Shown: positions 50,743 to 59,623, counted from the stretch's first letter. The stretch is 64,000 nt of DNA from Candidatus Hadarchaeota archaeon (GCA_964384105.1 CAYLJV010000001.1:448001-512000), one strand, 5' to 3'. Numbers and translations are program-made. The notes: generated by a model from the sequence alone, not told the origin.

Positions 50743-51498
50743 TTGAATTCTGATTTTTCCTTTTTAAGAAAATTTAATGCTTTTATGGGTTTTCTACACC
50801 TTTTTCAGGCTATTTTAATGTTAATCCTCAGTAATGATTTTTCTCTCACGATAACGAATACTTATCCGGGGGGACCGCCGGGAAGTGGGGAAATAATTAC
50901 GGAAAGTATTGGTAGTTTAAGAATAGGTCCATTAGTAGCAGTTTTTCTACTTATTTCTGCAGTTTGTCACTTTTTGCTCGCAACAATTCTCTACGATTGG
51001 TACGTCAGAAACTTAAAGAGAAACATCAATCATCTTCGTTGGATTGAATATTCCTTCAGCAGTTCGATTATGATTGTTATTATCGCTATGTTTGTTGGAT
51101 TTTTTGATATCAGCGTTCTCCTATTGATCTTCATCTTGAACGCTTCTATGATATTTTTTGGATGGTTGATGGAACTTTATAATCAGAGAACTGAGGAAAC
51201 TAAGTGGTCTCCGTTCATTTTTGGTTGCATTGCTGGTGCGGCTCCATGGGTTGCAATTGCCATTCGTCTTATAACGGCTGTTTGGAGTTCTCCAGTAGAC
51301 GTTCCAGGTTTTGTAATAGGAATTTTTGTCTCCATAGCCATTTTCTTTAATATATTCGCCTTGAATCAGTTACTTCAGTACAAGAAAGTAGGTCGTTGGA
51401 GGAATTACATATTCGGCGAAAAAATGTATATCGTTCTTAGCCTTGTAGCAAAATCAGCATTGGCTTGGCAGATTTTCTCTGGAACCCTGATAGATTAA
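50743..51498 (+). CDS. Heliorhodopsin
   Basis: LHLFQ, GGPPG loop, VCHF, RWIEYSFSSS counter-ion helix, GWLME, LSLVAKSALAWQ retinal-binding lysine. Confidence 0.95.
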   Translation: MNSDFSFLRKFNAFMGFLHLFQAILMLILSNDFSLTITNTYPGGPPGSGEIITESIGSLRIGPLVAVFLLISAVCHFLLATILYDWYVRNLKRNINHLRWIEYSFSSSIMIVIIAMFVGFFDISVLLLIFILNASMIFFGWLMELYNQRTEETKWSPFIFGCIAGAAPWVAIAIRLITAVWSSPVDVPGFVIGIFVSIAIFFNIFALNQLLQYKKVGRWRNYIFGEKMYIVLSLVAKSALAWQIFSGTLID

Positions 51499-51939: not shown

Positions 51940-53457
51940 TTGAAAATTTTGGCTAAGTCGCTTATGGGTAAAAAACCGAAAGTAGCCTTCTTTGATTTTG
52001 CAGGTTGTGAAGGAGATCAGTTACAGATAGCAAATCTTGAAGAAAAAATACTGAATCTGTTGGATCTTGTGGAAATAGTAAGTTTCAGAGAGGTTATGAC
52101 TGAACACTCAAACGACTATGATATCGCATTTGTTGAAGGTTCCATAACGAGACCAATGGATGAAGAGCGATTAAAAACTATAAGAGCAGAGGCTAAGAAG
52201 CTTATTGCTTTGGGAGATTGTGCCTGTAATGGTGGTGTAAACAAGTTACGGAATGATTGGTCGGTAGAGGATGTGGAAGAGGAGGTTTATCAGGGATCGG
52301 AGGATGTGATAAAAGACAACGAATTCTTCAACGCATATCCAACTAAGGCAGTTGATGAGATTGTGGATGTGGACTATTACATACGGGGATGTCCGGTTGA
52401 AGGAGAACAGGTGTTTTATTTCATAAAAAGACTGGTCTCTATGCCTTTAGAATCTAACAAAGATGTTTATTTTGACATTACGTTAAAAAATATAGATGTA
52501 GACGAACGTTCTCTGGTCAGTTACAATCCCAACAAGTGCATTCTATGCCGACGATGTGCCAATATTTGCCAAGACGTTTTGGGTGTTGATGCATTAGGCC
52601 CGGTCGATAGAGGGTGGACTACCATTATTTCGACCCCTGAAAACATAGGCTTTGATGCTAATGGTTGCATACAGTGTGGTCAGTGTATTTCTGTTTGTCC
52701 AGTCAATGCGCTTTACACAAAGTCACCTGTAGAGGGTTTGATTGAAGAGCTGAAAAATAGTGAACTTTCTATTGCTGTGGATTCCGTTGCGCTAGCATCT
52801 TTTGTTCAGAATCACCGGCTACTCAGTGATCTAGATCCAAGTCTCGCAGAGAAATATGTTGTAGCAGGTCTTAGGAAAATAGGATTTCGTAGAGTACTTC
52901 AGTATGATAATTATCTCCATAAGTCTCGAGAGGAGGATGAGAAGGCCGATAGTGCGATTCTTGCTAGCTGGTGTCTCCCTGCTCGAAATTATTTTGATGT
53001 TAGTAGTACCAGTGTTCTACGTTCGTATGAGGAAAACTCTCCTTGGAATTTGCTTATAGGTGAGGAGGGCGAAGGAGTCTGCTTGTTGAGTCCGTGTATA
53101 GGTCTCAAGGAGATTGAGCGATTAGGACCTGTGATTACTTCTCCGGAATTGGAAGAACTTTTCAATAAGATGGAATTAGATTTGGGGTTTTTGGATCCAG
53201 AGAATGGCGAGTATGACGGAGAGGTTGTTGACGAAGGTTTCGAACATCCAGGTGTTCCATCTAAAAAGGATACATTCAATATCACTGATGATTTGAAAAA
53301 TGAATTAGCTGAATCAGATCTTTCTGAGGGCCCAATTGGTGTTTTTCCATGTCTTAAGGGATGTGTGAGTGGTGGCGGTAATTATCCCACCGTCGATGAA
53401 TCCGATATACAGGAAAGAGTTGATTGGATTAATAATTTGAGGGGGGTTAATTTATGA
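51940..53457 (+). CDS. Fusion of a [NiFe]-hydrogenase small-subunit N-domain, a 2x[4Fe-4S] domain and a reduced [FeFe] H-cluster-like domain (likely start ATG 51964)
   Basis: GCEGD, VEGSI, GDCACNGG, RGCP; CILCRRCANIC, CIQCGQCISVCP; ASWCLPA, SPCIGLK, VITSPEL, PCLKGCVSGGGNYP. Confidence 0.85.
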   Translation: MKILAKSLMGKKPKVAFFDFAGCEGDQLQIANLEEKILNLLDLVEIVSFREVMTEHSNDYDIAFVEGSITRPMDEERLKTIRAEAKKLIALGDCACNGGVNKLRNDWSVEDVEEEVYQGSEDVIKDNEFFNAYPTKAVDEIVDVDYYIRGCPVEGEQVFYFIKRLVSMPLESNKDVYFDITLKNIDVDERSLVSYNPNKCILCRRCANICQDVLGVDALGPVDRGWTTIISTPENIGFDANGCIQCGQCISVCPVNALYTKSPVEGLIEELKNSELSIAVDSVALASFVQNHRLLSDLDPSLAEKYVVAGLRKIGFRRVLQYDNYLHKSREEDEKADSAILASWCLPARNYFDVSSTSVLRSYEENSPWNLLIGEEGEGVCLLSPCIGLKEIERLGPVITSPELEELFNKMELDLGFLDPENGEYDGEVVDEGFEHPGVPSKKDTFNITDDLKNELAESDLSEGPIGVFPCLKGCVSGGGNYPTVDESDIQERVDWINNLRGVNL

Positions 53458-53939
53458 TGGAGAGCAAGGTTGAAGAGTTGTCTTGGGAAGAGAAAAGGAA
53501 ACTAGAGAAGATAATAGACTCTGTTGATAATCCTGAATATCAGAAAATAGAGCTTCTTCAAAAGACTCAAGAGGAGTATGGATGGTTGAAAGGTGAACAC
53601 ATGAAGTATATCGCTGAATGTATTGATACCAGTTATACAGATCTTTTTGGTATTGCGACCTTCTATTCTCAATTTACTCTTCATCCGCCAGGTCGTCACA
53701 AGATATCTGTCTGCATGGGGACCAGTTGTCATGTGAAAGGGGGCGAAGAGCTGATGGAAGAGTTACAGGAAATATTGAATATAGGAGTTGGCGAAACAAC
53801 GGACGACAAACGATTCTCTCTTAATCAGGTTAGATGTTTAGGTTGTTGTGGTCTTGCTCCGGTGATTGATATAGATGGTAAGATATTCAGTAGGGTTAGA
53901 CCCGCTCAAATAGAAGATATTCTGGAAGAATTTGAATAG
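53454..53939 (+). CDS. HydC/NuoE-like [2Fe-2S] subunit
   Basis: ATFYSQF, VCMGTSCHVKG, RCLGCCGLAP. Confidence 0.93.
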   Translation: MMESKVEELSWEEKRKLEKIIDSVDNPEYQKIELLQKTQEEYGWLKGEHMKYIAECIDTSYTDLFGIATFYSQFTLHPPGRHKISVCMGTSCHVKGGEELMEELQEILNIGVGETTDDKRFSLNQVRCLGCCGLAPVIDIDGKIFSRVRPAQIEDILEEFE

Positions 53940-53947
53940 GTGATAAG

Positions 53948-56900
53948 ATGGTTATAGAAAAAATAGAAGATTTGGAAGAGATGGCCAAGATAGGCAAAAG
54001 AGAATTGGAATCCTATAATCCTAAGATAATATTTGGACATTCTACGTGCGGTATAGCTGCTGGTGCAGACGAGTTGATTGATTTTACAAAAGAATATTTA
54101 CGCAAAAATAATATCAAAGAAAAAATTGGGGAAAGAGGTCAGCCAGATATCGTTTCAGTAGGCTGTATAGGGATGTGTCATGCTGAACCACTTGTTGATA
54201 TTAAGATGCCAAAAAAGCCCAGAGTCACTTACTATAATGTTGATAAAAATAAATTGGAGCGCATATTAAACGAGCACTTGATCAATGACCGTCCAGTTGA
54301 AGAGTATGTACTGGGTCAACTCTCAAAAGAATTATCCGTTTGTGAACACGGGAGAGTTGATTACTCGTGGCAGTACGAACGCATACCCTCTTTAGATGAA
54401 CTTCCATTTTTATCCAAGCAAGTCAGAGTAGTTCTCAGAAATTGTGGTATTATAAATCCCGAATCTATTGGACAGTATGTTGCCAGAGGTGGTTACAGGT
54501 CCGCTTTAAAGGTTCTCAGTAAATACCATCCGCAGGGGGTCATAGAGGAGGTAAAAGAAGCAAATCTAAGAGGGCGGGGTGGAGCTGGTTTCCCGACTGG
54601 TTTAAAGTGGGAATTTGTGAGAAAGGCCGATGGAGAGCCAAAGTATTTAATTTGTAATGCCGATGAGGGGGATCCAGGCGCGTATATGGATCGTTCAGTT
54701 TTGGAGGGTGATCCACACAGCGTTATAGAGGGTATGATAATTGGTGCATACGCTATGGGTGCCTCTGTTGGTTATATTTACGTGAGAGCTGAATATCCGC
54801 TAGCCATTAAAAGATTGAAAAATGCTATAGAACAGGCGAAAGAGTACAACCTTCTCGGCGAGAATATTATGGGTAGCGATTTTTCTTTTGAGCTGAAAAT
54901 AATGAAGGGTGCTGGTGCTTTTGTTTGCGGTGAAGAGACTGCGCTTATCGCTTCTATAGAGGGTAAGAGAGGGGAACCACGTACTAAACCACCTTTCCCT
55001 GCGAATTCCGGTTTGTTTGGTAAGCCAACTAATGTGAACAATGTTGAGACGTGGGCGAACGTTCCTATGATTTTCGAGAAAGGTGCTGATTGGTTTAAAA
55101 GTATTGGTACAGAGAAGAGCAAGGGTACAAAGGTCTTTTCTCTTGTGGGAAACGTAGAACGTTCTGGGTTAGTTGAGATACCGATGGGAACCAAATTGAA
55201 AGAGATAATATACGAAATTGGAGGGAACATGGAAAATAACAGGAGGTTTAAAGCCGTGCAAACTGGTGGGCCTTCAGGCGGATGTATACCTGTAGATCAT
55301 CTCGATGTTGAAGTTGATTATGAGAACTTGAAAAAACTCGGATCTATTGTCGGTTCCGGCGGAATGGTTGCTATGGATGAAGACACATGTATGGTCGATG
55401 TTGCCAGATACTTTTTGGATTTTTGTGTAGGAGAATCCTGTGGACAGTGTGTTCCCTGTAGAATAGGAACCAGACGAATGCTCGAGATTCTGGACCGTAT
55501 AACTAGAGGTGAAGGAGATATAAAGGACATTGATATTTTGGAACATCTCGCGGTTCAAGTTAGAGATGGTTCACTTTGTGCCCTTGGTGGGACTGCTCCC
55601 AACCCAGTCCTAACTACTCTCAAATATTTCAGAAATGAGTATGAACAACATATTGAGGGAAAAGAGTGCCCTGCATCTTCCTGTGCCACCTTATTCCTTT
55701 CTCCCTGTCAAGACACGTGCCCAGCTGGTACGAATGTGCCTGGTCAAATGCAACTAGTTGTAGAAGGACGAATTGGAGAAGCTTATGAGCTACAGCGGGA
55801 GGATAATCCATTCCCTGGAGTTTCTGGTAGAGTATGTGATCACCCTTGTGAGGACCGGTGTCAACGGAGTCAACTTGATCGAGCGGTTTCGGTTATGGCT
55901 CAACATAGATTCGTCGCAGACCAGGTTTATTCTGGGGAGGTAGAGGATAGACCAGAGACCACAAGACTCGATCCAACAGGCAGAAGTATTGGAATTATTG
56001 GAGGGGGACCGGCAGGTCTTACAGCTGCTTATTTCCTGAAGAGACTGGGCCATGATGTTACAATATATGAAGGCCGTCCTGAACTTGGTGGCATGCTTAG
56101 GTGGGGGATCCCTGAGTACAGACTTCCTAGAGATATATTGGACTGGGAGATTCAGCAGATAATAGATCTTGGCGTTAATGTAAAACTTGACACTTCTGTT
56201 GGAAAAGACATATCATTTAATGAGGTACTGGATACGCATGATTCGATTTTCCTAGGTATTGGGGCTCATAAAGATATCTCGCTTGGATTAGAAAACAGCG
56301 ATGTGCTTGGGATACTGGAGGGGATGAAACTTTTAGAGAAGGTAAACAAGGGCGAGGAAGTAGAACTAGGTAACACAGTTCTGATAATTGGTGGGGGGAA
56401 CGTTTCAGTTGATATGGCAAGAACAGCACGGAGGTTAGGTTGTGAGAGAGTTATAGTCGCATATAGGCGGGAAGAGGTCGACATGCCGGCTTACCCTGAA
56501 GAAGTCGAGGAGGCTAAAAGGGAAGGTGTTGATTTCAAATTCCTCCTGTCTCCTGAAGAGATTATAGTTGAAGGTGGGAAGGCTGCAGGAATGGTATTTA
56601 CTAAGACTGAGATGGGTGAATATACCAAGGAAGGGCGTCGAAAACCGATGCCTTTAGAATATGAGAAAACCGTTTTGATGGCTGACACCATCATAACTGC
56701 TATCGGTCAGGAGATAGACAAAAGTTTTGCAGAAGATTTAGTTGATGAACTAACTGATGAGGAAAATAGACTTTTAGAGGTTGATTCCCTCACAATGAAG
56801 ACAAATCATCCAAAAATATTCGCGGGTGGGGATGCAGTTTTAGGTCCCTCAACAGTAATTGAAGCAGTCTCTCATGGTAAAAAAGCTGCTAAGGAAATAG

Positions 56901-57136
56901 ATGCTGAACTAATGGGTGAAGATAGGATGGAAGAACTGAGGAGTATTAATGACTATGATTATTCCATGGAAGAACGTGATAATGAGCAGTATATCCCCAG
57001 AGCGGAATTACAATCGCTCTCTGTTGAGGAGAGAAAAGATAATTTCAAAGAGGTTATTAAGTGTATGGATAGAGAAACTGCTGTGGGGGAGGCAGAACGC
57101 TGCCTAAGGTGTGATATAGGGAAGGGAGGAAAATAA
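53948..57136 (+). CDS. HydB/NuoF-like FMN/NAD(H) subunit fused to a GltD/NfnB-like FAD oxidoreductase
   Basis: GRGGAGFPTGLKW, NADEGDPG, CGEETAL, CGQCVPC; then PCQDTCP, GRVCDHPCEDRC, GGGPAG, GGGNV, YRR, FAGGD, RCLRC. Confidence 0.92.
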   Translation: MVIEKIEDLEEMAKIGKRELESYNPKIIFGHSTCGIAAGADELIDFTKEYLRKNNIKEKIGERGQPDIVSVGCIGMCHAEPLVDIKMPKKPRVTYYNVDKNKLERILNEHLINDRPVEEYVLGQLSKELSVCEHGRVDYSWQYERIPSLDELPFLSKQVRVVLRNCGIINPESIGQYVARGGYRSALKVLSKYHPQGVIEEVKEANLRGRGGAGFPTGLKWEFVRKADGEPKYLICNADEGDPGAYMDRSVLEGDPHSVIEGMIIGAYAMGASVGYIYVRAEYPLAIKRLKNAIEQAKEYNLLGENIMGSDFSFELKIMKGAGAFVCGEETALIASIEGKRGEPRTKPPFPANSGLFGKPTNVNNVETWANVPMIFEKGADWFKSIGTEKSKGTKVFSLVGNVERSGLVEIPMGTKLKEIIYEIGGNMENNRRFKAVQTGGPSGGCIPVDHLDVEVDYENLKKLGSIVGSGGMVAMDEDTCMVDVARYFLDFCVGESCGQCVPCRIGTRRMLEILDRITRGEGDIKDIDILEHLAVQVRDGSLCALGGTAPNPVLTTLKYFRNEYEQHIEGKECPASSCATLFLSPCQDTCPAGTNVPGQMQLVVEGRIGEAYELQREDNPFPGVSGRVCDHPCEDRCQRSQLDRAVSVMAQHRFVADQVYSGEVEDRPETTRLDPTGRSIGIIGGGPAGLTAAYFLKRLGHDVTIYEGRPELGGMLRWGIPEYRLPRDILDWEIQQIIDLGVNVKLDTSVGKDISFNEVLDTHDSIFLGIGAHKDISLGLENSDVLGILEGMKLLEKVNKGEEVELGNTVLIIGGGNVSVDMARTARRLGCERVIVAYRREEVDMPAYPEEVEEAKREGVDFKFLLSPEEIIVEGGKAAGMVFTKTEMGEYTKEGRRKPMPLEYEKTVLMADTIITAIGQEIDKSFAEDLVDELTDEENRLLEVDSLTMKTNHPKIFAGGDAVLGPSTVIEAVSHGKKAAKEIDAELMGEDRMEELRSINDYDYSMEERDNEQYIPRAELQSLSVEERKDNFKEVIKCMDRETAVGEAERCLRCDIGKGGK

Positions 57137-57804
57137 TGGAAATAATCATAGATGGTGAACAGTATGAATGCCAGCCGGGTCAGAAAGTTTATGATGTGGC
57201 TGAAGAGAATGGTATTCATATTCCCACTCTCTGCTATAATCATTTGATTCCTGAGATAAGACCAGGTGCATGTAGAATTTGTGTTGTAGAGGTTGTTAAT
57301 AATGGTAAAGAAACGCAACTTGAGTCTAGTTGCACTTTGCCAGTCTCTGAAGGTCTAGAAGTTTCAACAAATAGTCAGGCTGTATACGATGAGAGGAGAC
57401 AGGACCTTGAACTGATGCTTTCTGAACATGAACAGGATTGTCGAAATTGTGTCAAGAGTGGAAATTGTAACTTTGCCGAGCTATGCTTGGAATATGATAT
57501 AGATGGAGTATCTATATGTGCAGAGTGTCCTAAGCAAGAGAGTGGATGTTTTCTTTCCAGGGGGGTGCTTTGCCTCGGTCCGATAACCCATGCAGGTTGC
57601 GATGCTTTCTGTCTGAGGAAGGACGAACCATGCGAGGGGTGTTTCAGCTTGCTTAGCGATGAGAGTGTACTAAAATTCGGTATTGAAGCCTTAAAGGAGA
57701 CGGGATTTGATAAGGATGAAGTACTTGAGGCTGTGAAGATTTTTTCTTTTGATGGGTTAAAACGGTTAGAAATGTTAATGGAAAAAGAGGGATGGAATGA
57801 GTAA
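57136..57804 (+). CDS. Fusion of a HydA/NuoG N-terminal [2Fe-2S] + His-ligated [4Fe-4S] domain with a [NiFe] small-subunit C-terminal cluster domain
   Basis: IPTLC...GACRICVVE...SC, HEQDCRNCVKSGNC; then CAEC...GCFL...CLGPITHAGC...C...PCEGC. Confidence 0.87.
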   Translation: MEIIIDGEQYECQPGQKVYDVAEENGIHIPTLCYNHLIPEIRPGACRICVVEVVNNGKETQLESSCTLPVSEGLEVSTNSQAVYDERRQDLELMLSEHEQDCRNCVKSGNCNFAELCLEYDIDGVSICAECPKQESGCFLSRGVLCLGPITHAGCDAFCLRKDEPCEGCFSLLSDESVLKFGIEALKETGFDKDEVLEAVKIFSFDGLKRLEMLMEKEGWNE

Positions 57805-59104
57805 AATTGATATAAATGTGGAACTTTTGACTCGAGTTGAGGGACACGGTAACATAGTAGTTAATGCAGAGGAGGGCAAGATTAAGGAACTTTCGTGGAA
57901 AGTTGAAGAAGCCCCGCGATATTTTGAGGCTTTAGTTAAAGGTAAACCACATCACCAGTTAGCTCAGATTACTTCGAGAATTTGCGGAATTTGTTCCATG
58001 GCTCATCAATTAACTTCTTTGAAAGCTACAGAAAACGCGATGAATATCGAAGTATCTGAACGCGATGAACTTCTTAGAAGGCTTGCACTTCACGGTGAAT
58101 TTATTCAAAGCCATGTTCTCCACTGTGGTTATTTGGCTTTGCCGGATTTACTTGAAGTTGGATCAGTTATACCTTTAGCTTCTTCAAATCCAGATGAACT
58201 TAAAAATGTCATTAGGGTGCATAGAGTGGGTAATGAACTTTCTGACTTAGTCGGAGGTAGAAATACGCATCAACGAAGGCTTGTCCTAGGTGGACTTTCA
58301 AAACTGCCTTCACCACTAGAACTTAGGACATTAAAAAGTAAATTAGCTGATTCTTTAAAGGATTTAGAGAAATTGGTATCGTTCTTGAAGGGAGTGGTGT
58401 CCCAGTTACCTGATTTTAGACGCGAGACTGAATTTATATCTTTGAATCATGAAAAAAGATATCCACTCTACGATGGTAACATAGTTTCATCTGATACAGG
58501 TACTGCTCCGGTTGAGAAGTATTTGTCGATAACTAATGAGTATGTGGTTCCACAATCAACAGCTAAATACACTAAGCACAATCGGGAATCTTATATGACT
58601 GGAGCTCTAGCGAGATTTAATAATAATTATGATCATCTTGGGTCAGAGGCTAAGGAAGTTGCAGAAGAGTTTGGATTGGAACCAATATGTCATAGACCTT
58701 TCATGAACAATATTGCTCAGGTAGTAGAAACTGTACACTGTACTGTAGACGCAATAAAAATTATCGATGAATTGTTAGACAAAGGACTGGACTCTCAGGG
58801 TGAATATTGTCAACCTCACGTAGACGTAAAATCAGGAAGAGGAGTTGGAGCAGTTGAAGCTCCACGAGGTATTCTCTTCCACGACTATACTTACAATAAG
58901 AAGGGAGTGTGTACTAAAGCGAATTGTATTATTCCTACTAATCAGAATCATGGAAACATTCAGAGAGATTTAGAAAAAATGGTGCCAGAAATGATGGATG
59001 AGCCAGAGGAAAAAATAGAACATTCTTTAGAAATGTTGGTGAGAGCCTATGATCCATGTATTTCTTGTTCTACACATTATCTAGACGTAGATTTCGTTGA
59101 TTAA
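57797..59104 (+). CDS. [NiFe]-hydrogenase large subunit, group 3b-like
   Basis: TRVEGHG, L1 SRICGIC, EAPRG, L2 DPCISCSTH with a cleavable C-terminal tail. Confidence 0.95.
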   Translation: MSKIDINVELLTRVEGHGNIVVNAEEGKIKELSWKVEEAPRYFEALVKGKPHHQLAQITSRICGICSMAHQLTSLKATENAMNIEVSERDELLRRLALHGEFIQSHVLHCGYLALPDLLEVGSVIPLASSNPDELKNVIRVHRVGNELSDLVGGRNTHQRRLVLGGLSKLPSPLELRTLKSKLADSLKDLEKLVSFLKGVVSQLPDFRRETEFISLNHEKRYPLYDGNIVSSDTGTAPVEKYLSITNEYVVPQSTAKYTKHNRESYMTGALARFNNNYDHLGSEAKEVAEEFGLEPICHRPFMNNIAQVVETVHCTVDAIKIIDELLDKGLDSQGEYCQPHVDVKSGRGVGAVEAPRGILFHDYTYNKKGVCTKANCIIPTNQNHGNIQRDLEKMVPEMMDEPEEKIEHSLEMLVRAYDPCISCSTHYLDVDFVD

Positions 59105-59161
59105 CTGCTTTTTGTTCGATCAATTCATGAAGATCTTTGAGAATACAGATTTAACTTTACG

Positions 59162-59623
59162 ATGAAGGCAATTATAGGTTTGGGAAATCCAATTAGGGCT
59201 GATGATGGAATAGGCATACGCTTAATTAAAGAAATTAGGAAAAAGGATCTCCCTCCCGATGTGGAAGTTTTCGACTCTGGCAACCGGGTAATGAGATTAT
59301 TACATCTTTTAAACGATTTAGAAATAGCCGTTATAGTAGATGCAGTCCATTTTGGTGGAAATCCAGGAGATTTTGTTTTCTTTTCGCCGGAAGAAGTAAA
59401 GTCTCTGAACACATCTAAAAATACCCATGATACCAATATTCTGGAGGTTCTTGAACTATCCAAAACTCTGAATAAAGAATCAAAAGAGATAATAATAATG
59501 GGGATTGAACCGAAAGATACGTCTTTTGAGGAAGGTATTTCGCAAGAACTTAAAGATCGCCTGCCTGAGATGATAGATGAATTATTAAAGAAAATAATGG
59601 TTATGGGATCGGATGGAAAATGA
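59162..59623 (+). CDS. Hydrogenase maturation protease
   Basis: GLGNPIRADDGIG, IVDAV, NTHD, GIEP. Confidence 0.94.
   Translation: MKAIIGLGNPIRADDGIGIRLIKEIRKKDLPPDVEVFDSGNRVMRLLHLLNDLEIAVIVDAVHFGGNPGDFVFFSPEEVKSLNTSKNTHDTNILEVLELSKTLNKESKEIIIMGIEPKDTSFEEGISQELKDRLPEMIDELLKKIMVMGSDGK

Follow-up and report, generated by a model that had tools for sequence, protein, structure and literature searches.

Hybrid [FeFe]/[NiFe] hydrogenases were first reported in 2024 by Greening et al. (Cell; PMC11216029), and what is said of this source here refers to selected passages of its text, methods and supplement. It describes a group F [FeFe] / group 3f [NiFe] hybrid hydrogenase in 21 archaeal genomes, an AlphaFold2 model of the five-subunit complex, and production of H2 by one of two SG8-5 fusions after artificial maturation. 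The small product HydD is described there as a 'NuoG-like conduit' with four clusters, and the large fusion protein is credited with the three [4Fe4S] clusters of the [NiFe] component; according to the methods, the HydD cofactors were placed from 7T2R chain A and 5ODC chain E, the latter being a small subunit. The H-domains of groups F and G branch deeply in the published tree, which is unrooted. The present analysis concerns an operon of this type in a stretch of 64,000 nucleotides (hereafter 'the window') from a Candidatus Hadarchaeota archaeon (GCA_964384105.1, CAYLJV010000001.1:448001-512000), in which two genes carry complementary halves of two parent proteins, the HydA subunit of [FeFe] hydrogenases and the small subunit HyhS of [NiFe] hydrogenases. 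S(N) and S(C) are used below for the N-terminal and C-terminal domains of the small subunit, A(N) and A(C) the corresponding parts of HydA, and L the large subunit HyhL. In gene orders, SA and AS stand for the S(N)-A(C) and A(N)-S(C) chimeras, and C and B for hydC and hydB.

Several described systems are close to the operon or to its parts. The group G/3g hydrogenase (Brockarchaeia JAAOZO01, PMC11216029) shares a divergent short H-domain, reported to be sister to that of group F, and a 3b-like hyhL with a small subunit adjoining; it differs in that HydA is unsplit ([2Fe2S]-(His)[4Fe4S]-2[4Fe4S]-H, 530 aa) and HyhS unfused, which is the unswapped state, and in its order hydA-hyhS-hyhL without hydB or hydC. 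The electron-bifurcating [FeFe]-HydABC enzymes (Thermotoga maritima 7p5h, Thermoanaerobacter kivui 8a6t, Acetobacterium woodii 7q4v) rank among the best relatives for A(N), A(C) and HydC and are strong ones for HydB, and their module order C-B-A is present too in other HydABC-type loci of the window's genome. In these enzymes, however, HydA is one chain with 38-39 residues from the His-cluster motif to the F-domain, and there are no [NiFe] parts. The NiFe-HydABCSL of Acetomicrobium mobile (7t2r) has HydB, HydC and A(N) close to those of the window, but its HydS is short and consists of S(N) only (179-182 aa), without S(C) and without a swap, and its HydA' is NuoG-like with a molybdopterin-type domain and without an H-domain. 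The group 3b sulfhydrogenase (Pyrococcus furiosus SH1, 9nez; hyhB-hyhG-hyhS-hyhL) offers the best solved match or paralog for S(N), S(C) and L. Its small subunit is one chain of 250-260 aa whose domains are 26 residues apart, and the operon has hyhB and hyhG upstream, whereas in the window the small subunit is split and hyhB and hyhG are absent.

The window operon reads S(N)-HydA(C) / HydC / HydB-GltD / HydA(N)-S(C) / HyhL (genes g1 to g5; 51964-59104 on the + strand, in window coordinates), with the gene for a HycI protease (g6) next. It has the same five genes as group F/3f, namely a fusion with an N-terminal HyhS-like and a C-terminal H-cluster part, together with hydC, a hydB that includes a glutamate-synthase-like domain, a gene for a 'NuoG-like' HydD (~220 aa), and a 3b-like hyhL. 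The gene order is that of the published Thermoplasmatota and Bathyarchaeia B26-1 loci, and the published set includes fusions of ~500 aa with weak FeFe hidden Markov model scores. The features of group F found in the window are an N-terminal small-subunit domain and a C-terminal H-cluster domain in one chain, contiguous hydC, hydB-GltD, HydD and hyhL genes, and conserved H-cluster Cys. The exact motif of the window protein was not found in Table S2 of PMC11216029. No difference in kind from the published loci was seen, and the window operon belongs to the enzyme already described, presumably an electron-bifurcating or confurcating group F [FeFe] / group 3f [NiFe] hybrid hydrogenase. No new enzyme class is revealed; it is the evolutionary reading, not the system, that is new. 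The split of HydA, the presence of S(C) in HydD and a permutation or insertion are not stated in the passages of PMC11216029 considered, nor was the reciprocal split of HydA and HyhS, or a model for it, found in them, and the literature search found no account of a HyhS-HydA fusion besides that paper.

When the PDB sequence collection was searched part by part with stretches of g1 and g4, the four halves were mapped onto the two parents. Residues 12-163 of g1 correspond to residues 3-148 of the 261-aa delta chain of P. furiosus sulfhydrogenase 1 (9nez_A, E = 3e-16) and align further with MvhG, HoxY and A. mobile HydS, and residues 127-217 of g4 correspond to residues 163-254 of the same chain (E = 3.9e-10), with weaker matches to MvhG-type chains. 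Residues 1-125 of g4 correspond to HydA residues 1-123 (7q4v_A of A. woodii, 1.7e-21; also 8a6t_A of T. kivui and 7p5h_A of T. maritima) and match A. mobile NiFe-HydA too. Residues 175-321 of g1 correspond to HydA residues 121-266 in the same three bifurcating chains, in one unbroken alignment that begins in the inter-domain linker, takes in the 2x[4Fe4S] F-domain and reaches the start of the H-domain. A second, weak stretch of HydA in g1 (residues 466-494) is the C-terminal H-cluster motif L3 (L1, L2 and L3 are taken here to be the names of the motifs that hold the H-cluster Cys positions of HydA). Since the four matches are complementary and colinear, each parent is covered once, by its two halves together.

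An earlier reading of the window from its sequence only (the sequence-only reading) had parsed the genes as S(N)-[HydA(C), hydC, hydB, HydA(N)]-S(C)-L, and this parse is confirmed by the PDB matches of all four halves. The breaks are found at g1 residues ~167-175 (~52438-52465) and g4 residues ~121-127 (~57496-57516), in agreement with the junctions it had placed near 52440-52500 and 57500-57515, and the halves are colinear with and complementary to intact 9nez_A and bifurcating HydA. With the intact small subunit of the window's genome (251 aa) and an intact HydA (P0096) as reference coordinates, S(N) extends to a median position of 152 (interquartile range (IQR) 152-153) and S(C) begins at 160 (median; IQR 156-164); A(N) extends to 119 in 72 of the 75 HydD proteins, and the beginning of A(C) is at 140 in 53 of the 85 fusions. 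The breakpoints in the two chimeric genes are complementary, without net gain or loss of sequence apart from the spacer sums given below. Both S halves are nearest to intact small subunits of the 3b type, and both HydA halves match best the same three bifurcating HydA chains.

The published wording, if read literally, would leave nothing split: the fusion would hold a complete small-subunit Fe-S domain with three [4Fe4S] clusters, and g4 would be a NuoG/HoxU-like conduit. Pfam indeed sees only NuoG-type domains in g4 (Fer2_4 and NADH-G_4Fe-4S_3), but these are confined to residues 2-124, and the remainder matches the C-domain of the 3b small subunit and MvhG-type chains as described above, not Fer4. 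The dicluster domain of g1 lies within the one continuous HydA alignment that enters the H-domain, and the authors of PMC11216029 themselves took a small subunit as a source of HydD cofactors. An unsplit reading of the two genes is scarcely credible.

The junctions are nearly invariant in length among the relatives. Of the 506 matches to g1, the best 120 include 85 fusion clusters (P0005-P0089); within that selection g1 is 36-65% identical to the 84 others, and PF02906 is present in 27 of these. With g4 as the query, 149 matches were obtained, of which 75 are HydD-type clusters, g4 included. Residues were counted between fixed cysteines: in the fusions, between the final Cys-Pro of the proximal cluster and the first Cys in the F-domain; in HydD, between the final Cys of HxxxCxxCx5C and the first Cys in S(C). 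The fusion spacer is 47 residues in 83 of the 85 fusions and 48 in the other two, and the HydD spacer is 16 residues in 77 of 78 proteins, the remaining one having no pattern match. In open reading frames (ORFs) from the fetched loci, the fusions have 47 (n = 23) or 48 (n = 2) and HydD has 16 (36/36). When 25 diverse HydD proteins with 40-67% identity to g4 are aligned, no indel is seen at the junction, where EYDI[DN]GV[SP]VCAEC is nearly invariant; residues Y120, D121, V127, C128 and C131 of g4 are invariant or nearly so. The group F locus of Zestosphaera, which has another gene order, has spacers of 47 and 16 as counted by eye in the supplement of PMC11216029, and the same junctions are therefore present across gene orders. 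Homologs with displaced junctions, a possibility that the sequence-only reading had raised against itself, were not seen in these sets.

Measured in the same way, intact small subunits of the 3b type have 26 residues (29 of 30, the exception being an MvhG-like protein with 34), and intact HydA proteins have 38 (21 of 30; 39-41 in eight, no pattern match in one). The spacer sums are 47 + 16 = 63 in the chimeras and 26 + 38 = 64 in the parents. A reciprocal break-and-join keeps the linker sum, and hence 63 versus 64 is nearly as predicted, which is not expected from two independent fusions. The length-invariant junctions and the near-conserved linker sum are new here, as are the grouping of the fused S(N) domains and the predicted binding of the two chimeras, both described below.

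These genes would have arisen most economically if hyhS and hydA had recombined in a single illegitimate, reciprocal crossover, with one of the two carried by a circular molecule (Campbell-type cointegration). By this event the N-domain of the small subunit would have been joined to the C-part of HydA (F-clusters and H-domain) in g1, and the N-part of HydA to the C-domain of the small subunit in g4. The crossover would have occurred once, before group F diversified. A probability of roughly 0.55 is assigned to a single reciprocal exchange as the maker of both chimeras.

The alternative is a stepwise origin through two or more fusion or fission events, e.g., with S(N)-A(C) formed first, in which the breakpoints and the gene order would come from selection for a working complex. 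Some observations are in accord with it. Independent events would be tolerated as well at domain boundaries, which is where the breaks are found, and group G, with HydA and HyhS unsplit and adjacent, indicates that [FeFe] and [NiFe] parts may associate without a swap. However, a metagenome scan with the HydD alignment, which gave 35 loci with relatives at least 49% identical to g4, found no intermediate: all 17 loci that reach far enough upstream have SA-C-B(GltD)-AS, and none has one chimera without the other. An assembly artefact was ruled out, as the arrangement is repeated in these 17 independent contigs. Independent events do not predict the spacer sum either, nor junctions that are invariant over more than 75 clusters each and in a locus of the second gene order (see below). 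A stepwise origin is judged less likely than a single exchange, with a smaller but substantial share of the probability; what is left falls to the minor rivals and to scenarios outside those weighed here.

In the S(N) tree (38 rows, 173 columns; published order-2 and group G sequences are not included in the trees), all 22 fused S(N) rows, whether short, long, response-regulator-fused or L-less, fall on one side of a branch with support 87/83 (not starred), and the intact small subunits of the 3b type fall outside. The approximately unbiased (AU) test rejects a grouping of the window S(N) with the same-genus intact S (p = 8e-6). The L of the window and those of its three closest hybrid relatives form the sister group (support 90) of the L of intact 3b operons from the same genus. 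The L tree differs from that of the fused S(N), which points to a separate history of the large subunit; the large subunits form multiple clusters in PMC11216029 as well. Recent gene conversion between the hybrid operon and the genome's own 3b operon was ruled out, the DNA identity of hyhL being 66% and that of third positions at conserved codons 30-59% per 40-codon window; on these sequence distances, the likeness of the hybrid to the 3b paralog is old.

The gene orders of the published group F loci were taken from sheet 4 of Table S2 of PMC11216029, the rows of which are oriented by hydA (checked on two rows). The window's order, order 1, is found in 7 of 21 loci (Thermoplasmatota SG8-5 and UBA186, Bathyarchaeia B26-1), one of them with hyhG immediately upstream. 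The order C-B-AS-L-SA (order 2, that of the Zestosphaera locus) is found in nine and probably one more (Sulfolobales NBVN01, Caldarchaeales, EX4484-205, Thermofilales and an Odinarchaeota metagenome-assembled genome), C-B-AS-SA in three, and C-B-SA-AS-L in one. The cyclic order SA-C-B-AS-L predicted by a single crossover is kept in 16 or 17 of the 21. Since C-B-AS-L-SA is a cyclic rotation of the window order, as would come from the mirror event in which an S-L circle entered hydA, the window order alone leaves the direction undecided, and it is not established which gene set was the recipient. The four orders, together with the exchange and the loss of L, show that operon rearrangements plainly occurred; both the frequent rearrangement and the exchange of the large subunit with 3b paralogs are in keeping with a stepwise origin.

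The sequence-only reading had gone further and proposed that a circularly permuted hydC-hydB-hydA was inserted into the small-subunit gene. This part is not established and is one of two symmetric options, considering that the window order is present in only a third of the published loci (7/21, against 9 or 10 rotated and 4 others), that L has a different history, and that neither hyhB nor hyhG lies directly upstream of the fusion in the 39 loci of the hybrid set. Its proposal that a single crossover created both fusions fared better: the reciprocal exchange at its core is well supported by the complementary breaks, the spacer sum and the grouping of the fused S(N) (87/83), and the singleness of the event is plausible. 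Of the separate trees of the halves that it had suggested, that of S(N) gives one fused group (87/83), whereas that of S(C) does not resolve a single HydD clade.

Several observations weigh against the single exchange. The spacer sum of the chimeras differs from that of the parents by one residue, and function could have imposed complementary breakpoints at domain boundaries even if there were two separate events. In the S(C) tree (103 columns), the intact S(C) form a starred clade (99/96) and the HydD S(C) fall into two or three groups, so that this tree speaks neither for nor against one origin; the large subunits of the hybrid loci are not one clade (AU test, p = 0.0002). Genes hyhB and hyhG precede hyhS in 22 of 22 intact 3b loci examined, and in 0 of 39 loci of the hybrid set do they lie directly upstream of the fusion gene. 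The gene order is not uniform, and its four forms require at least one later rearrangement, whichever is ancestral, while the sample behind the 17 complete metagenome loci is biased to relatives at least 49% identical to g4. A(N) is not assignable to HydA in particular, as opposed to the N-modules of Fdh or NuoG: it scores equally against Fdh-type N-modules, in comparison sets each of which was selected by one half, and owing to that selection no clear donor emerged when A(N) and the F-domain were scored against intact proteins of the HydA and Fdh types. A representative search with g4 gave four proteins at E <= 1e-30, all of the HydD type; the others among the best 150 mostly match no more than A(N), so that no donor lineage appeared there. 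A word-based search with the H-domain (residues 262-505), the sensitivity of which is limited, gave nine proteins, all fusions, and no unsplit HydA of this type; a scan of the genome contigs with g1 alone gave three loci, all intact hyhS-hyhL operons and no hybrids.

The polarity might also be the reverse, the swapped form being ancestral and the intact HydA and group 3 small subunits being derived by excision or recombination. The reaction is formally reversible, and the deep branching of the group F/G H-domains in an unrooted tree (PMC11216029) would allow it. The contiguous module of A(N) and F-domain is, however, widespread, being common to HydA, NuoG-like NiFe-HydA, and Fdh- and Nfn-type subunits; contiguous S(N) and S(C) are found in 30 of 30 intact small subunits examined, in addition to the solved 3b and 3c enzymes; and the swapped form is limited to one family. 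The reverse polarity is considered very improbable.

With a single reciprocal exchange as the preferred origin, a wider reading may be put forward at about even odds. A single crossover would have cointegrated hydC-hydB-hydA with a 3b-type hyhS-hyhL, an operon-scale domain swap that wired two unrelated hydrogenase classes together in one step. Its scar (47 + 16 versus 26 + 38) would have been fixed before group F spread over several archaeal phyla and to a contig labelled Planctomycetota, and the scaffold would later have been reused in the window's genus, with HdrA-MvhD and an HdrB/C-like gene at its flanks and without the [NiFe] large subunit. In this genus, one genome has the same short type of fusion as the window, and three have a divergent long type (577-584 aa, PF02906-positive). 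The long-type loci (L034-L036, in genomes G051, G050 and G054) keep SA-C-B, and two of them reach AS.

The L-less scaffold of these three loci reads, e.g., at L035:4351-13499 (-), HdrA-MvhD (797 aa) / S(N)-A(C) (577 aa) / HydC / HydB-GltD / A(N)-S(C) / HdrB/C-like CCG protein, and no [NiFe] large subunit was found near L034-L036. The S(N) of this type has a very long branch (3.03), yet most cluster ligands are kept. The layout suggests an [FeFe]-hydrogenase/Hdr-type complex that reuses the small-subunit halves as Fe-S adaptors. By term search, the L-less type is not discussed in the main text of PMC11216029.

Conservation of the cofactor ligands extends through both chimeras. In g1, C23, C94 and C151 (proximal cluster), the eight F-domain Cys at C200-C253, and C345, C386, C471 and C475 at the H-cluster positions are invariant in 31 of 31 aligned fusions, and the last four align with the Cys positions of the L1, L2 and L3 motifs of HydA. 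The position of the first Cys of TSCCP is Trp in the fusion. The second proximal ligand position, residue 26 of g1 (52015-52017), is Asp (GCEGD), as it is in P0009 and in the intact 3b small subunit of the genome, whereas most fusions have Cys there (CEGC). In g4, the ligands of the [2Fe-2S] and His-ligated clusters and the eight S(C) Cys are invariant in 25 of 25 HydD proteins. The short-type H-domain (~245 aa) has deletions of ~70 residues relative to the long type; it may be catalytically competent.

The two chimeras are predicted to bind each other. The predicted g1+g4 complex has an interaction prediction score from aligned errors (ipSAE) of 0.83, compared with 0.01 for the best of three controls; the ipSAE mark is attained by 116 of 157 solved complexes and by 2 of 215 mismatched pairs. 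The runs share at least 92% of contacts, and the partner predicted local distance difference test (pLDDT) is at least 86. The predicted interface is formed by residues 93-157 of S(N) and 196-259 and 402-490 of the F/H part of g1, and by residues 32-113 of A(N) and 121-207 of S(C) of g4. Because intact HydA and small subunits have already been solved, this pass may reflect likeness to solved folds and need not count as independent evidence.

In the proposed working of the enzyme, the four halves would re-associate across g1 and g4 and rebuild an intact small-subunit fold and an intact HydA fold, i.e., a domain-swapped heterodimer. Electrons of the [NiFe] site would pass from L to the proximal cluster in g1, to the medial and distal clusters in g4 and on to the clusters of HydA(N), while those of the H-cluster would pass by the F-clusters of g1 to the same HydA(N) clusters, which would feed the flavin module HydB(FMN)-GltD/HydC.

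With HydD being half HydA and half small subunit, and the fusion holding the complementary halves, the assignment of the clusters changes: the proximal cluster and the HydA F-clusters belong to g1, and the medial and distal clusters of the small subunit to g4. The reading also offers a concrete and testable origin, one reciprocal exchange backed by a linker-length sum rule, and a handle for engineering, in that the halves, when re-joined, should yield separable [FeFe] and [NiFe] modules.

The features of the operon and the other loci of the genome are listed in Table 1. Six ORFs on the + strand cover 51940-59623, with overlaps of 1-8 nt or an 8-nt spacing, and a gap (57 nt) is present only before hycI.

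Table 1. Features of the hybrid hydrogenase operon (window coordinates) and further hydrogenase- or HydABC-type loci of the same genome (G000)
Feature	Position	Strand	Remarks
g1, S(N)-HydA(C) chimera (hyhS-hydA fusion)	51964-53457	+	497 aa from ATG 51964, or 505 aa from TTG 51940
g1, S(N) proximal-cluster domain	up to ~52395	+	
g1, 47-residue spacer	52396-52536	+	putative break near 52450-52465
g1, HydA 2x[4Fe4S] F-domain	~52537-52700	+	
g1, shortened H-cluster domain	to 53454	+	~245 aa
g2, hydC (NuoE-like [2Fe-2S] thioredoxin-like subunit)	53454-53939	+	Pfam PF01257 (2Fe-2S_thioredx), 3.1e-48
g3, hydB-GltD	53948-57136	+	NuoF-like FMN/NAD(H) part, residues 1-580; GltD-like FAD/NAD(P)H part, 585-1056
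g4, HydA(N)-S(C) chimera (HydD, 'NuoG-like conduit' in PMC11216029)	57136-57804	+	
g4, A(N) with [2Fe-2S] and His-ligated [4Fe-4S] sites	57136 to ~57500	+	
g4, 16-residue spacer	57469-57516	+	
g4, S(C), 8-Cys medial/distal-cluster domain of group 3b small-subunit type	~57511-57801	+	
g5, hyhL, group 3b-type [NiFe] large subunit	57797-59104	+	Pfam NiFeSe_Hases
g6, HycI/HyaD-type [NiFe] maturation endopeptidase	59162-59623	+	Pfam PF01750, 9.9e-23
Intact 3b hyhB-hyhG-hyhS-hyhL(-hycI)	G000 C1:230246-234165	-	identity to S(N) 54%, S(C) 34%, L 64%
A. mobile-type hydC-hydB-hydA'-hydS-hydL-hycI	G000 C5:15549-22123	-	
NfnABC-like hydC-hydB-[A(N)-GltD-F] locus	G000 C6:3099-9795	+	
Mvh-like pair	G000 C1:412780-415679	+	

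The database gene call for g1 (P0005) starts at 51964. Pfam finds Oxidored_q6 (residues 23-164) and a Fer4 dicluster domain (192-259) in g1 and nothing in the last 245 residues, Fe_hyd_lg_C not reaching E 0.001 in the H-domain. In the PDB, g2 is matched best by HydC from T. kivui and A. woodii and by the A. mobile NiFe-HydC. For g3, Pfam gives Complex1_51K, NADH_4Fe-4S, Fer4_20 and Pyr_redox_2; the PDB matches include 9bov_B, 8oh5_B, NfnB 9n5u_B, NiFe-HydB 7t2r_B and FeFe-HydB 7q4v_B, and the GltD part aligns with residues 102-567 of 9bov_A and 104-508 of NfnA. The best PDB match of g5 is the alpha chain of sulfhydrogenase 1 (9nez_D, E = 3.3e-65, residues 5-429), and its motifs are an N-terminal RICGICS and a C-terminal DPCISCSTH followed by an extension of eight residues.

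The genome is 1.62 Mb in size, with an estimated completeness of 90%, and has, besides the window operon, the four loci at the end of Table 1. None of HydE, HydF and HydG was found above the family cut-off in this ~90% complete genome; they are likewise missing in most archaea according to PMC11216029.

Among the 35 related metagenome loci, hyhL follows HydD in 31, the contig ends first in two, and an ORF of S(C)-like repeats follows in two; hycI lies 3' of hyhL in 12. The ORFs with repeats (L063:1324-1863 and L071:1738-2484; representative P0248, 248 aa) are directly 3' of HydD, at the usual place of hyhL, and consist of two S(C)-like modules in tandem (residues 44-133 and 152-242), which share 38% and 31% identity with the S(C) of g4. 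P0248 has no Pfam match, and both contigs end before any hyhL could show. In L070:45-3419, a hybrid-type locus, HydB is without the GltD-like domain, and ~250 nt separate the end of hydB from the HydD gene.

A locus on another contig (L069:3626-12475, +) encodes a fusion with an N-terminal response-regulator and HATPase extension (P0061, 869 aa), which is also seen in P0045 (859 aa); the order is otherwise SA-C-B-AS-L-HycI. A protein of this contig is labelled Planctomycetota by one source, a phylum without mention in the main text of PMC11216029 by term search, and the locus is possibly a bacterial, signalling-linked member of group F.

Hybrid operons often adjoin other hydrogenase operons. 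A cluster of the NiFe-HydABCSL type lies upstream of the hybrid operon, in divergent orientation, in L040, L041, L043 and L055, and one lies downstream in L044; an intact hyhB-hyhG-hyhS-hyhL-hycI lies 1-3 kb downstream in L047 and L068, and L067 shows the start of hyhB-hyhG-hyhS before its contig ends. In Table S2 of PMC11216029, the hybrid of UBA147 is likewise listed as adjoining another hydrogenase operon. In the window, two genes identified by Pfam point to an archaeal host: an aRF1 gene lies downstream of the hydrogenase operon, and a heliorhodopsin gene (50743-51498, +; Pfam PF18761, E = 2.4e-101) lies 440 nt upstream of it.

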